In this document: positions 37,510 to 46,551 of the stretch, one piece after another | Layout: each line of letters begins with the position of its first letter | How positions within the stretch are numbered: the first letter of the stretch is position 1 | Source of the DNA: a virus | Lineage: Duplodnaviria; Caudoviricetes | Virus record (IMG/VR): IMGVR_UViG_3300048849_000167 | Span: 1 to 49,354 of that record | Strand: one strand, 5' to 3' | Length of the DNA stretch: 49,354 nt | The notes under the pieces: generated by a model | Database searches by the model: none | Told to the model about the DNA's origin: nothing | Seen by the model: the letters and a program-made list of their open reading frames with translations, nothing else | Made by a program: the position numbers and the translations under genes

Positions 37510-38340
37510 TTAGGCCTCCAGGTCATACCTGTGTGAGTTAAACCGCTCGGCGACGACCCTACCGCCATCTTCGCCTTGAACATAGATCTCAAGGAAGACC
37601 TTCGAGCTAACCCATCCGCCGCCGTCCATTGCGCTCTTCGTGTCGATGCCAAGGGCGACCGTGTTCTTCGCGTATGCCCTTCGTCCGACGTAATGGCTTG
37701 GAAGGTAGCGGATTCCTGCACGCCGGCAGACAGCCTTCAGGCGCTCGTTAACGCTGTGCCGGCACCTGTATTTGAAAGGCCCTTCCTCGTGGTTGTTGCG
37801 CAGCTCGTAAAGCTTGGCGATAAGGTCGTCGGTCAGGTGCCGGACAGAGTTCTTACCCGTCTTCGTCTTCCGCAGAATCACCTTCCGGTTTACGAGGTCG
37901 ATGTCGTCCCATCGAACGTTGACTGCCTCGCTGATCCGGGCCGCCGTTCGGTTCATGAAAAGGACCAGGGCAGCCAGGTGGGGCAGCCTGTCGATCTTGC
38001 ACTGGCGGAGGAATAGGATCATCCATTCCAACGTCGCCGCCGGCCGTCGCTTCGGCTTTTCCTCCTTGAACCGCTTCAGCCGTATCAGGCTGCACCAGCC
38101 TCTGTCATATGCGTGGTTGATCACGGCGCTCACCGGCATCAGGGCTTGCCGATTCTTCGTCGCATTGCTCTGATGGGGATAAAGGGCGTTCGCCATCTGC
38201 TGAAGGTCGAAGGGGTAGATGCTGGACAGTGGACGGTCGCCGATCAATTCGGTAATTCTGGGAAGGAATTTCGCTTCGCCGCCATGATCGATGTAGCTGG
38301 CCGCGGCCTGCGCAAAGACCTTTTCCTCACCTATCAGCAT
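37510..38340 (-). CDS. tyrosine recombinase (short, no arm-binding domain)
   Basis: TAARISEA (R), KTKTG (K), HYVGR, GGW, EIY. Confidence 0.85.
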   Translation of the reverse strand: MLIGEEKVFAQAAASYIDHGGEAKFLPRITELIGDRPLSSIYPFDLQQMANALYPHQSNATKNRQALMPVSAVINHAYDRGWCSLIRLKRFKEEKPKRRPAATLEWMILFLRQCKIDRLPHLAALVLFMNRTAARISEAVNVRWDDIDLVNRKVILRKTKTGKNSVRHLTDDLIAKLYELRNNHEEGPFKYRCRHSVNERLKAVCRRAGIRYLPSHYVGRRAYAKNTVALGIDTKSAMDGGGWVSSKVFLEIYVQGEDGGRVVAERFNSHRYDLEA

Positions 38341-40183: not shown

Positions 40184-40650
40184 GGTGCCGCCCTTCTTTC
40201 CCAGTCCATCATCTTACGCAGCTCTTCGTTCCCGTAGTTGGAAAGTTTATACCGCCTGCGACCGCGACCATCCTCGCCAAGATGCTCAATAACCTTTTTC
40301 TCGGCCAGCAATTCTAATGTATGATCGCCGGCCCCCCTGATATCGGTTGACGTGTCGCACTCCGGATGATCGCTCATGTACCGCAGAACCTTCAGGTACC
40401 TGTCTTCCAGTCTCGTGGGTCTATCCATTTTTGCTAAGAGTATGTCCGCAAGTTTTGTTCGTTCCGGTTGGTCTTCCTTGAAGCTGTCAATCCATTTGTC
40501 AACGTCGCGGACGTCGTACCGCTGCATCCTCACTCCATGCCCAAGAGAGATGGGCCGAACTGGGCATGTGCCACCGAATGTCGCAACAGAGAGGCCGCAA
40601 TATTGGGCGGCTTGAGTCTTCGTCAGCAGTCTCGCAGTCGGCAGCGTCAT
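40180..40650 (-). CDS. excisionase-like HTH fused to winged-helix-like domain
   Basis: RLLTKTQAAQYCGLS..RYDVRDVDKWID; C-terminal YKLSNYG. Confidence 0.68.
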   Translation of the reverse strand: MTLPTARLLTKTQAAQYCGLSVATFGGTCPVRPISLGHGVRMQRYDVRDVDKWIDSFKEDQPERTKLADILLAKMDRPTRLEDRYLKVLRYMSDHPECDTSTDIRGAGDHTLELLAEKKVIEHLGEDGRGRRRYKLSNYGNEELRKMMDWERRAAP

Positions 40651-41759
40651 TTCCTGCCCCACTTCACATGAGTGCTCACTGCCGTCAGAGGGTCGTCCCA
40701 CCAGTGCAAGTCGCGCCAAGCCTGCGGGACCGGAAGAGTGTTGATGGCCTCAATCAGTGGCGGTCTTGGGACCTGCGTGTACCTCCGACTCATATCGTCC
40801 ACCGCATGGCCGAGGATCTGGTCTTTTATGTGCGAATGCACGCCGTTGATCACCAGCTGTGTCGAGACCGTGTGGCGTGCTGTGTACGGGCTGATTTTGG
40901 ATATTTCATTATTTGCATCAGCCATTCGCTTTCGTGTCCCGCGAAGCGCGCCATGTAGCTGGCCGCCCCTTGTTTCATGAATGTGGTATGGCAGGCCTCG
41001 GTAACTTCGGATGAGCTGGCGGAATCGATCGCTTCTTCTTTTCTTCAGAGAAGCAAAAAGGGGCACCAGAAATTCATGGATTGGTACGCCTCGAGGTTCA
41101 CCGCTTTTGGTGTGGCGCAGCGTAATCCAGCGGTTTTCTACGTCGACATCATCGGGCTCCAGGGTGAAGAGCTCAATGGGACGCATGCCCGTGTAAAATA
41201 GCGCCGTCATAACCATAGCGGGCGCGGGTGACATATTACTCACGAATCCGGCCGCGAGCTCATATTCAACTGGCCTATCCCCGCTTCGGATCGATAGCTT
41301 CCGAGCGGTCGTGCCTTTCAGCTTTCGAGGACGTTTCCATCTCCGGAGTTCTGCCCAGTCATTGTCGACGGCGCAGTTCCAAACCGCAATGAAAGGTGTG
41401 TAGCATTGCCGGTTGCGTGTTTCGAGAGCGGCGGTCGGATGTAGCAACTTTGCTATTGAATCAATGTCGCTTTGATTTATCGAACGAAGAGGACGATGGC
41501 CTAACAGATTGGTCAATCTGGATAGGAAACGCGTGGACCCGCCGCCATTGAGGTAGGCCGTCGCGGCCTCCTCGAAGGTAGCATTTATCTTTTTGCCGAA
41601 GATACTTTCATCAACGAGCTCGCGTTCTCGGACGATCCTGATCGTTTCCGCAGCCTCCAGGTCGGCGATTTTGGTGCTTTCGTACACCTTGATGCCGCGA
41701 ACGGTGCCTTGTAGCCACCAGTTCGGGGAGCCGGCACGACGAACCAAAAGCAGGGGCAT
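40647..41759 (-). CDS. tyrosine recombinase/integrase
   Basis: TGMRPIE (R), TKSG (K), YTARH, LGH, RRY; GGAGG RBS. Confidence 0.9.
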   Translation of the reverse strand: MPLLLVRRAGSPNWWLQGTVRGIKVYESTKIADLEAAETIRIVRERELVDESIFGKKINATFEEAATAYLNGGGSTRFLSRLTNLLGHRPLRSINQSDIDSIAKLLHPTAALETRNRQCYTPFIAVWNCAVDNDWAELRRWKRPRKLKGTTARKLSIRSGDRPVEYELAAGFVSNMSPAPAMVMTALFYTGMRPIELFTLEPDDVDVENRWITLRHTKSGEPRGVPIHEFLVPLFASLKKRRSDRFRQLIRSYRGLPYHIHETRGGQLHGALRGTRKRMADANNEISKISPYTARHTVSTQLVINGVHSHIKDQILGHAVDDMSRRYTQVPRPPLIEAINTLPVPQAWRDLHWWDDPLTAVSTHVKWGRK

Positions 41760-41889
41760 CTGCCACCTCCTAGAAAAGAACAACTTTGCCGCCGGCACGG
41801 ATGCCGAAAGCTTACTGCTGGTCTCCTCGTGGTGTGGTGGTGTCGCTGGTAAGGCGTTGATGGAAGCTACTGCAGGCGGCCAGGTCCGG

Positions 41890-42120
41890 TCAAGCCTGTC
41901 TGTCGCGTAGGCGGACGCCTGGGCCGTTGCCGTTCTGATCGATGAAGATGACACCAGCTGCTTCTAGGGCGGCGCGGATGGCGGCGAGGGTTCGAGGCAT
42001 AATCTCTTCACCCCTCTCAAGGCGCGAGATCGTGTCGACCGCTACACCAGCCTCTTTCGCTAGCTCTCTTACACCCCAGCCGATAGCTGCGCGGGCCATC
42101 TTGCTCTGTACTGCGTTCAT
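41890..42120 (-). CDS. XRE-family HTH regulator
   Basis: QSKMARAAIGWGVRELA..V..TISRLERG..ALEAAGVIFI. Confidence 0.9.
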   Translation of the reverse strand: MNAVQSKMARAAIGWGVRELAKEAGVAVDTISRLERGEEIMPRTLAAIRAALEAAGVIFIDQNGNGPGVRLRDRQA

Positions 42121-43896: not shown

Positions 43897-44918
43897 TCAG
43901 GATGAGCCGGGTGCGGAGTTACGCCGATCCCTCGCGGCCACTAGATCCGCATAAGCTTTCTTCACGATGCTCACGACCAAGTCTTTACTGAATGGCTTCG
44001 TAATGAGTCTAGCTGGCTCAGGCCTTGGCCCTTTTAGCAGGCGTTCTGGAAACGCCGTCACGAAGACGGGATAGCAATCAACAAGAGGGATGATTTTTTG
44101 AACCGCGTCCATACCTGAGCTCCCGTCGGCCAACTGGATGTCGGCGATCAGGATGTCGGGCCGAGTTCGTAAAGCCAGTTCAACAGCGTCCTTTTCAGTC
44201 CTCGCTATTCCGCAGACGACGAAACCTGCATCTTCCAGAATTTGTGAGAGATCAAGGGCAATGAGAGGTTCATCCTCGATGATCATTGCAACCGGACGCA
44301 GACATTCCAGCGCTTTTAGCGTGGATTTCAGCGCCACAATTTCTTTCTCAGCTAAGGCAAGCTTTTCTGTTATCTCACGCTTCTCATCAGTCGCGACCGC
44401 ATAAGCTGAGGCGGATACTTTTGTAGCAGGCGCTAGTGATTGAAGTCTGACTTCCAGATCAGCTTTCCACCGTTCGCGCTTCCGATCAAAGATGTGGTTT
44501 TCGGTTGCATCTAACCCCAGAGCTTCAGCAATGCTCTCTCTAACCTCCTGAAGCCCAGCGTGGTTTGTGATCTCCCACGCCTGAATCTGACCAACTGTTC
44601 GAGTGACGTCAATGAACGACACAGGAGGAACAACGATCGCGAGTGGACGCAGCGACTGGGACCAAGTGGCGCCAACCTCCATCAAGCAAAATGGCTGTCC
44701 ATGTAGGCGGGCGTCATGAGGAGTATAACTAGGTCTGCGGCGTTGATCTGCTCCTTCATATCCTTGTTGAAGTCGTGAGTGAGCGGGACGCCGAACCCAG
44801 GGAGGCTCGAGCAGAAGATTGCCTTCGGCGGCACACCAACCGCCTCCATGAGAAAGTCGACTAGCAGATCAGCGATGTTCTTGTCGGTAACTGCATGGCT
44901 AACAAATACCCGTCTCAC
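43897..44918 (-). pseudogene. TIR domain - coiled coil - PhyR-like receiver fusion, split by a 1-bp frameshift
   Basis: VFVSHA...LLMTPAYMDSHF then frame switch to (CL)MEVGATW; receiver IIEDEPLIA, ADIQLADGSSG, TAFPERLL, TKPF. Confidence 0.82.
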
Positions 44919-45041: not shown

Positions 45042-46283
45042 CTACCTTCGCCGACCAGTCAGCAGATCTGCTGCCGGAACGAATTCCGCCCCGATCAGGT
45101 CAGCCCATTCCTGCGCCAACTCTTTCCTCCGATTTAGATGGATCGCACGATTGTAGGCGCCTTCGACTTTATCTTTGGGGACGTGTGCGAGCATCAAATC
45201 GACGACATGCTTGTCGGCAGGGAAACGCTCGTTCATCACTGATGAGAACGTTGCGCGGAAGCCGTGCGGCACGTGGTGGCCATGATATCCCGCCCGGTTC
45301 AATAAGTACCCCATCGCATTTTCGGACATAGGTTTGTGAGCGTGGCGTGCGTTTGGGAAGGCGAGGGTGCCTCGTCCGGATACTTGGCGTAGCGCCTCAA
45401 TCGCCTCCACAGCCTGCCTCGAGAGGGGCACAAGATGATCGCGCGCCTCGTCCTCTTTGTACTGGAGTCGGAGTTTCATGCGGACGGCGGGAATATGCCA
45501 TAGCGGCGTCTCGTCGAAATCCGTCCACTCGAACCAAGGAGTAGAGGCCAGCGTGCCGGGGCGTACAGCCGTGAGTGCAAGGATTCGCAGTGCCAGCTTT
45601 GTGACGGGATGCGCGATCTCGCGATCGACCTTGGCAAGCATTTCTCTCGCCTTTGATAGATCCGTAATTGCCGGCTGGCGTCCTTTTTTTAATGGCGCCA
45701 TCGCCTTCTGCACGGTGGCGGCAGGATCAGTCTCTGCGCGGCCTGTCGAGATCGAGTAGACGAAGACCGCGCTCATCCGCTGTCGGATACGTCGGGCCGT
45801 ATCTTTCGCTCCACGCGCCTCTATGGGGCGAAGGACAGCTATGACGTCTGACGCGGTAATATCCTTGATTTGGACCTTGCCAAGGACAGGAAAGATATCT
45901 TTCTCAAGGCTCGTGATAACATCGTCAGCATGCCGCTCCACCCACTGAGATTTGTTTAGTTTGAACCATTCGCGGGCCAACGCCTCGAGACTGGTCTCTC
46001 CTGCATTAGCACCGGCGAGCTTCCTGAGCTTCTTCGTTGCGCCTGGATCTTTACCGGAACGAAGCATCGCCTTGGCGTCGTCTCGTTCGCCGCGAGCTGC
46101 CAGTAATGTCACATCCGGATACGCGCCGATCGAAAGCAGCTTTTCTTTTCCCCCGAAGGTGTAGCGGAATCGCCATAGTTTTCCGCCTGATGGCGAGACA
46201 TAGAGGAACAGCCCACCGCCATCGGCAATCTTGAAAGGCTTCTCTCGAGCCTTCTCTTTCCGGATTCGCAGGTCGGTAAGCAT
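45042..46283 (-). CDS. P4-type integrase (tyrosine recombinase with arm-binding domain)
   Basis: DGGGLFL..SGGKLWRFRY..GAYPDVTL; VRPG, HGFR, LAH, AYNR; adjacent to tRNA/att. Confidence 0.95.
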   Translation of the reverse strand: MLTDLRIRKEKAREKPFKIADGGGLFLYVSPSGGKLWRFRYTFGGKEKLLSIGAYPDVTLLAARGERDDAKAMLRSGKDPGATKKLRKLAGANAGETSLEALAREWFKLNKSQWVERHADDVITSLEKDIFPVLGKVQIKDITASDVIAVLRPIEARGAKDTARRIRQRMSAVFVYSISTGRAETDPAATVQKAMAPLKKGRQPAITDLSKAREMLAKVDREIAHPVTKLALRILALTAVRPGTLASTPWFEWTDFDETPLWHIPAVRMKLRLQYKEDEARDHLVPLSRQAVEAIEALRQVSGRGTLAFPNARHAHKPMSENAMGYLLNRAGYHGHHVPHGFRATFSSVMNERFPADKHVVDLMLAHVPKDKVEGAYNRAIHLNRRKELAQEWADLIGAEFVPAADLLTGRRR

Positions 46284-46455: not shown

Positions 46456-46475
46456 GGGAAATGGCGGAAGAGGTG
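46456..46475 (+). repeat. att core, right copy
   Basis: identical to 919-938. Confidence 0.92.
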
Positions 46476-46551
46476 GGATTCGAACCCACGGTACGGTCTC
46501 CCGCACGCCGGTTTTCAAGACCGGTTCCTTAAACCACTCGGACACTCTTCC
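46462..46551 (-). tRNA. tRNA-Ser(TGA)
   Basis: GGAAGAG acceptor, CCGGT-CTTGAAA-ACCGG anticodon arm, long variable arm, GGTTCGAATCC, CCA; 90 nt. Confidence 0.96.

Follow-up and report, generated by a model that had tools for sequence, protein, structure and literature searches.

This locus raised the question of whether two short open reading frames (ORFs) beside a prophage integrase, one with a match to a TIR domain and the other with a match to a response-regulator receiver, are parts of a single gene, and what the intact protein would do. The window, meaning the whole 49,354-nucleotide stretch of DNA that was analyzed, is a prophage of about 45.5 kb (919 to 46475) between 20-bp att cores, as recognized from PHROGs and Pfam matches and the att repeat. 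Its gene content includes primase, terminase, capsid, portal, tail, endolysin, and integrase (PHROGs, Pfam). Downstream of the integrase, and in the same orientation, lies the TIR gene, with 123 bp between the integrase stop and its start. The features referred to below are the following.

919 to 938, no strand assigned: att core, left copy, 20 bp (repeat D6; sequence).
43897 to 44298, minus strand: PhyR-like receiver and C-terminal helix, with E-D, Asp, Thr, and Lys canonical in the window copy (NCBIfam PRK09191).
44299 to 44421, minus strand: linker and long helix, a predicted coiled coil of about 36 residues (helix 170–205 in the AlphaFold model of the homologue P0008).
44422 to 44685, minus strand: C-terminal TIR half; it contains the putative catalytic Glu (44677–44679) as well as the Gly and Trp that belong to the alphaC interface in SpbK (alignment to SpbK 9phb; conservation).
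44682 to 44918, minus strand: 5' piece, the N-terminal half of an SpbK-type TIR, with a GTG start, GGAGG just upstream, and a premature TGA (TIR_2; homologue alignment).
44688 to 44691, minus strand: 4-nt run where one base was lost and the frame shifts, in the region of the Phe codon immediately ahead of helix alphaC (reading frames; homologue alignment).
45042 to 46256, minus strand: tyrosine integrase of the prophage, immediately upstream of the TIR gene (Phage_int_M, Arm-DNA-bind_3, Phage_integrase).
46456 to 46475, no strand assigned: right-hand att core of 20 bp, located where the tRNA has its 3' end (repeat D6; sequence).
46462 to 46551, minus strand: tRNA-Ser(TGA), the prophage integration site (ARAGORN).

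Several other features of the prophage were recorded. Its cargo includes two RTX-repeat (HemolysinCabind) proteins and a Crp-like regulator (33082–34230, 34872–35960, and 31821–32537, respectively, plus strand), and two more tyrosine-recombinase genes lie within it beyond the att-side integrase (40647–41954 and 37510–38340, minus strand). A 249-aa ORF at 36498–37247 (minus strand) contains two C-x-x-C motifs and matches PHROGs 19960 and 7075, both of unknown function, with no Pfam or PADLOC match. Over positions 30480–30917, run X1 contained a second, diverged sequence at a depth of 26–29, which suggests that the sample also contained a related element or strain. The MCP flanking the prophage has only about 76% identity to Rhizobiaceae genes, and a sigma70 promoter scan found no promoter.

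The first ORF (44682–44918, minus strand) encodes 78 aa that match TIR_2 positions 1–66 (E 1e-6) and align with residues 1–77 of intact homologues. The second (43897–44685, minus strand) encodes 262 aa with a Response_reg match (E 3e-10), contains the rest of the TIR plus the receiver, and is in the −1 frame relative to the first. At the break the first frame reads ...AYMDSHFA and then stops, and the second reads ...QPFCLMEVGATW. Intact homologues read Y-M-D-S-x-F-C-L-M-E (x-F-C-[LV]-M-E) across this position, and the Phe is encoded by TTT in 5/7 homologue loci. Because intact homologues align to both pieces across the break at 44688–44691, chance adjacency does not explain the arrangement; on this alignment the two ORFs are a single gene split by a one-base loss, as the initial annotation had claimed.

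The break cuts the TIR just before its catalytic helix, and the window copy is therefore likely dead, with neither piece expected to be an NADase. Restart at the ATG of the second ORF, which overlaps the stop of the first, would leave most of the TIR fold missing. The copy retains 52 of the 59 columns that are at least 90% conserved among intact homologues (one of the seven misses being the masked break), and its receiver keeps the acidic pair (44272–44277), Asp (44140–44142), Thr (44056–44058), and Lys (43996–43998). We read the copy as a likely recent pseudogene that arose by one-base loss. It is highly improbable that the split is instead functional or artefactual, that is, a product of programmed −1 frameshifting, phase variation, two cooperating subunits, or assembly error. 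One −1 slip on the run would restore the full-length frame, and the overlap of ATG and stop and the retention of so many conserved columns would also fit a working arrangement. However, no homologue with a confirmed split at the same site was found, and the break leaves the catalytic helix detached from the TIR fold. At only 4 nt the run is short, and the window contains 183 A/T runs of exactly that length, so the site is not a contingency repeat and the phase variation suggested earlier is unlikely. The break is spanned by a 10,076-bp contig with a depth of 81 and 0 differences from run X1, which may be the window's own source and so not independent, and no variant contig was listed, although contigs drop rare variants. 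Since this contig carries the same allele, the assembly error that had also been proposed is unlikely as well.

Homologues with the order TIR, coiled coil, receiver comprise 24 intact and 8 partial sequences, so that the fused protein reconstructed in the initial annotation does have intact counterparts. The intact fusions are 332–370 aa long; those with names come from Agrobacterium, Rhizobium, Neorhizobium, Mesorhizobium, and Shinella, plus one from a MAG labelled Delftia. Duplicates were removed from the count (L002, identical to P0129; L005, identical to L004; and P0122, in the P0008 cluster), and P0010, a truncated twin of P0006, was counted as partial. The AlphaFold model of P0008 consists of a TIR, the long helix, and a receiver, with a mean pLDDT of 80 and a pTM of 0.45. 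A homodimer prediction with alignment A3 gave 0.55 vs 0.53 for the control and counts neither way. Mean identity within the family is 63% for the TIR, 50% for the receiver core, and 21% for the linker. In one fragment, P0279, the last TIR helix runs straight into a receiver, without the coiled coil and the first receiver strand. The TIR profile gave 0 matches at E<=1e-20 in 401 Alphaproteobacteria genomes, a search with no positive control, which we read as not found there rather than as absent. In a GTDB scan with the downstream ORF, 1 of the 601 stretches among the matches listed was confirmed, and it proved to be a PhyR locus. INPHARED phages gave one weak TIR match with P0008 and, among 8 weak matches, no close PhyR homologue.

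The TIR of the family is SpbK-type by both sequence and structure comparison. For 5/5 TIR proteins scanned, the top PADLOC model was spbK (E 1e-22 to 6e-30), with the match limited to positions 150–305 of the 308 in the profile; the family TIR begins at residue 1. The best PDB sequence match was SpbK (9phb; E 2e-20, next 2e-3), and the model of a sister protein, P0133, had SpbK as its best structural match (Z 17.6, rmsd 2.4 over 152; next Z 12.6). Encoded by a single gene of ICEBs1, SpbK is an NADase that rests as a dimer, is activated when its accessory domain clusters on the phage portal, and additionally makes N1-cADPR, whose role is unknown (PMC12847820, excerpt). Positions equivalent to its E192, G194, and W197 are conserved in 25/25, 25/25, and 24/25 sequences. 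In SpbK, E192Q abolished defense (PMC11984713, excerpt), and G194R and W197A abolished both NADase and defense (PMC12847820, excerpt). D158 in the BB-loop and N191 in alphaC, both required for SpbK activity (PMC12847820, excerpt), are not conserved and align to a variable small residue and to Met. We infer NADase activity for the family from its SpbK-type TIR. The gene 123 bp from the integrase still qualifies as a candidate defense NADase in an integrase-adjacent slot, as it was first described.

The receiver is PhyR-like in sequence, and PhyR is its closest match, which supports the closeness to PhyR noted in the initial annotation. A PDB search with the receiver gave eight PhyR structures at the top (E 2e-38 to 1e-33), followed by the next natural receiver at 3e-17, and the Foldseek ranking agreed. 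Against NCBIfam, PRK09191 scored E 5.7e-44 and 150.8 bits, below its whole-protein cut-off of 240, with the next family at 2.5e-16. One receiver, from P0259, scores equally on PRK13435 and PhyR and is ambiguous. Identity to the best sampled PhyR ranges from 31 to 58%: 56–58% for the window, P0005, and P0009, with the window at 58%, and 31–40% for the deep members. Motifs specific to PhyR remain recognizable throughout the family, namely A-x-D in alpha1, G-x-A-R-T, L-A-D-G-S-S-G, T-A-x-P-E-x-L-L, and K-P-F, so that alpha1, the beta3-alpha3 loop, beta4-alpha4, and K-P-F remain PhyR-like; the motifs quoted originally, with the acidic pocket, Asp, Thr, and Lys, are all present in the window copy. 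The residues of helix alpha5 that are invariant in PhyR have mostly been lost, as has the Gln following the Asp. Both alpha1 and the beta5-alpha5 loop would be kinase-docking surfaces.

Two trees bear on the origin of the receiver. When 21 fusion receivers were placed in one tree with 27 receivers from PhyR and 14 generic ones, they grouped with those of PhyR, with weak support (77/90). In a second tree, of 24 fusion receivers (P0259 omitted) and 14 PhyRs with three active-site columns dropped and the root assumed, the two sets fell on opposite sides of a 100/100 branch. The second tree suggests either a single old capture or an unsampled paralogue as the source. Fresh recombination with a rhizobial phyR was considered as the source of the window's Asp; it is not favored, for when the three active-site columns are taken out the Asp copies still fall with the fusion receivers and separate from the 14 PhyRs.

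The PhyR phospho site is Asp in 111/111 sequences. In the family the corresponding residue is Glu in 22/24 intact and 8/8 partial homologues and is never N, G, A, or S; it is acidic in 32/32 homologues. The canonical site is present solely in the window, P0005 (from Mesorhizobium), and P0009, which keep all five catalytic residues. The second acidic-pocket Asp is absent in 20 of the 22 Glu-type intact homologues, and the receiver Thr and Lys are invariant (25/25 sequences). In sequence terms the canonical receiver of the window is the minority type and the family majority has aspartate-less receivers, which are pseudo-receivers under the definition in PMC12632262 (excerpt). Glu accounts for every substitution among the fusion receivers, which are related rows, compared with only 26% of those in aspartate-less receivers generally (PMC4395418, excerpt). 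Glu copies were monophyletic in 0/200 bootstrap trees, with 3–4 changes, which hints that Glu was fixed repeatedly; the starred branches alone permit a single origin. In the TIR tree the Asp copies are nested in a 16-member clade (100/99) whose remaining members have Glu. To judge from this conservation, the receiver matters and so does an acidic side chain at the phospho site, but Asp chemistry does not.

The pattern at the phospho site bears directly on the initial proposal that phosphorylation by host stress kinases gates the TIR. As a mechanism for the family it is not supported, because the phospho-Asp is Glu in nearly all members. For HWE/HisKA2 kinases to phosphorylate the receiver and thereby turn on the NADase could hold only for the Asp-type minority that includes the window, and even there we regard it as improbable. 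These three are the most PhyR-like full-length members and have the complete catalytic set, acetyl phosphate can phosphorylate PhyR, which becomes phosphorylated even in E. coli (PMC4551977, excerpt), and toxicity of such a protein could explain selection for the frameshift. Against it, the 22 Glu-type homologues cannot be phosphorylated on Asp, most of them also lacking the second acidic residue, and a fixed Glu would keep the toxin on. No kinase gene is beside the loci examined, and the family is not found in the nepR-ecfG-HWE kinase locus, its contexts being prophage and plasmid. An assumed EcfG-type promoter motif was found upstream of 0/8 family loci and 0/17 sister loci vs 4/6 phyR/nepR controls. 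Because a fixed mimic should be toxic if phosphorylation switched the NADase on, the phospho-like state would more plausibly be the resting, armed state.

The initial annotation also held that TIR had replaced PhyR's sigma-like domain. The sigma-like domain (PF22029/PF22233) was not found on the fusions, whose N-terminus is occupied by the TIR and coiled coil. The same TIR and coiled coil, however, are much commoner in receiver-less relatives, 194/210 of which cluster together and have a different C-terminal domain where the receiver would be; there are a few further modules. Because the TIR and coiled coil belong to this larger family, it was probably the TIR that gained a receiver and not PhyR that gained a TIR, and the C-terminal slot would act like a swappable sensor. 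Receiver-bearing TIRs occupied 3–5 places among these relatives across bootstrap trees and never formed one clade; the starred branches of the TIR tree do not require more than one origin.

The sister family (P0132–P0228 and most of P0238–P0373; L006, L009, L015, and others) has an SpbK-type TIR and a coiled coil. Its C-terminal domain is unnamed, mostly helical, about 130 aa long, and ends in D-D-x-x-F-W-E (AlphaFold pLDDT 90). No Pfam match beyond TIR was found for the sister family, and its C-terminal domain had no Atlas match and no BFVD match at E<=0.001. In a VIA structure search with a sister protein, the listed matches were all to the TIR, a result that does not imply a new fold for the C-terminal domain. 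The sister family is a candidate uncharacterized defense family. Elsewhere, the ESM Atlas contains clusters that combine TIR_2 and a receiver, a receiver and CAP12-TIR, and DUF4062 and a receiver, in Actinomycetota, Pseudomonadota, and Acidobacteriota.

The distribution of the TIR-receiver family is rare and mobile. The window and L002 are prophage ends adjoining an integrase, and L083 and L084 are small Agrobacterium plasmids. Tn7-like or Mu-like transposition genes are near L003 and L008, and weakly near L005; L003, L005, L008, and L011 are regions with transposition or LigD genes, and SOS-peptidase and ImuA regions are also among the contexts. No neighbor or partner gene is common to the eight loci compared, and only a few pairs share mobile-element genes such as LigD. 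The four window neighbors of the TIR gene had no PADLOC match. On the Agrobacterium pusense plasmid, L084:9185–10033 (minus strand), directly downstream of the TIR-receiver gene, has a weak, sub-threshold RiboL-PSP-HEPN match. At L003:261–806, a member of the TIR-receiver clade ends after 181 aa beside a TniQ gene and is a second broken copy.

Since these loci are no obvious defense islands but SOS-peptidase, ImuA, and LigD regions, a role other than anti-phage defense has to be weighed: the TIR might make a nucleotide signal or tune host physiology for the mobile element, or the receiver might titrate kinases or NepR, dampening the stress response and favoring lysogeny. The production of N1-cADPR by SpbK (PMC12847820, excerpt) would fit the first version, and the prophage does carry other regulatory cargo, such as the Crp-like gene. 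The chance of either version seems to us slim, as no effector or partner gene is shared by the eight loci, the closest characterized TIR is a defense effector, and the distribution is rare and mobile.

Our preferred reading, which we put forward tentatively and by analogy, is that the intact protein is an abortive-infection NADase whose receiver serves as a phosphorylation-independent bait resembling phosphorylated PhyR. The protein would rest as an inactive dimer, by analogy with SpbK. The trigger would be a binder of the PhyR receiver, with a phage factor directed against the general stress response as the most likely candidate and a host partner, such as a stress kinase, as the alternative. 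By binding several baits it would cluster the TIRs head-to-tail; NAD+ would then be consumed, the infected cell would arrest, and the infection would be aborted. Glu would lock the armed state in the majority, and in the Asp-type minority the bait could be armed by host kinases.

Phage proteins that target PhyR, mentioned in passing in the initial annotation, are thus the favored candidate trigger. A weak lead to such a trigger comes from PhiM9 and P10VF, rhizobial phages with an RpoE-like sigma factor that is nearer to those of Alphaproteobacteria than to phage sigma factors (PMC4621102, excerpt); the string 'PhyR' in the PhiM9 paper (PMC4621102, excerpt) proved to be the program PHYRE. Among the papers listed from the open-access literature on PhyR, phage, and the general stress response we found no phage protein that binds PhyR, and in the open-access literature no report of phage targeting the alphaproteobacterial general stress response.

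Several observations weigh against the bait. An identity of 31–58% to the best PhyR is loose for a decoy. Retention of the first acidic residue and Lys-Pro with loss of the second acidic residue is the generic pseudo-receiver pattern (PMC4395418, excerpt). Asp-to-Glu is a one-base change and the commonest pseudo-receiver substitution, and its role may be no more than structural; Glu does not act as a phosphomimic in every case (PMC12632262, excerpt). The window itself has a canonical receiver, and D158 and N191 of SpbK are not kept.

Another account, which we consider rather unlikely, deserves attention: the protein would be the same SpbK-type defense NADase, but its PhyR origin would be incidental, and the pseudo-receiver would sense a phage structural protein, much as SpbK uses its N-terminal domain to sense the portal (PMC12847820, excerpt), or would merely dimerize or auto-inhibit the TIR. 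The residue pattern fits generic aspartate-less receivers, many pseudo-receivers dimerize without phosphorylation (PMC12632262, excerpt), the deep members are far from PhyR, and the other TIR-plus-receiver clusters in the ESM Atlas indicate that receivers are generally reused with TIRs. This account does less well with the persistence of PhyR-specific motifs across the whole family and with a phospho site that is always acidic.

The bait reading can be extended to an integrated decoy, in which rhizobial mobile elements captured the receiver of the host's PhyR, repeatedly froze it as a phosphomimic Glu, and joined it to an SpbK-type NADase, so that phages attacking or hijacking PhyR-NepR-EcfG would trigger NAD+ collapse. 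We regard this full scenario as possible but, taken as a whole, unlikely. If it is true, plant NLR integrated domains would have a counterpart in this protein decoy, and the scenario would point to an unrecognized phage attack on the general stress response.

The interest of these results is in the family rather than in the window copy, which is probably a pseudogene. The family offers a small, testable set of candidate single-gene defense NADases in rhizobia and agrobacteria. It also offers a natural experiment, with Asp-type and Glu-type receivers on near-identical TIRs and another C-terminal module in the sister family. If the bait reading is true, escape mutants would identify phage proteins directed at the general stress response of Alphaproteobacteria, and the family would provide a clean case of how pseudo-receivers switch, which a 2025 review calls a mystery (PMC12632262, excerpt). 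Combinations of TIR and receiver are not unique, and databases already annotate proteins of this family as TIR or response regulator; in the open-access literature we found no description of an SpbK-type TIR with a PhyR-derived, mostly Glu-fixed receiver.

Among known systems, the TIR is most similar to that of SpbK (Bacillus subtilis ICEBs1, activated by the SPbeta portal YonE), belonging to the same subfamily by HMM, PDB sequence, and structure. Both keep the catalytic Glu and the alphaC Gly and Trp, and both are single genes of mobile elements that join a TIR to one accessory domain. In the family, however, the TIR is N-terminal and precedes the predicted coiled coil, a PhyR-like receiver serves as accessory domain in place of SpbK's N-terminal four-helix bundle, and D158 and N191 are not kept. 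Similarity to the TIRs of Thoeris ThsB and type III ThcB4 is weak, with scores far below those for SpbK and below cut-offs, and no ThsA-type effector adjoins any locus examined. Like the aspartate-less receivers described previously (Maule 2015, PMC4395418, excerpt; PMC12632262, excerpt), 22/24 intact homologues have no phospho-Asp, with Lys-Pro and the first acidic residue retained; they differ in that the substitution is always Glu (26% in general) and the output is a TIR, and the window copy is canonical. The receiver resembles that of PhyR (PRK09191, the alphaproteobacterial anti-anti-sigma factor) in sequence, fold, and C-terminal position, but the family has no sigma-like domain, scores 151 bits vs the cut-off of 240, has Glu in 22/24, forms a lineage separate from the sampled PhyRs (100/100), and is not in the nepR-ecfG-kinase locus. 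By these comparisons the family is neither SpbK, from which its sensor domain and two required residues differ, nor PhyR. Guard and decoy immunity is known from the integrated domains of plant NLRs, and Panoptes reportedly uses decoy nucleotides. The logic proposed here would be alike, in that a copy of a host target would be wired to a death effector; it would differ in that the decoy would be a protein domain of a two-component regulator, fused to a bacterial TIR.
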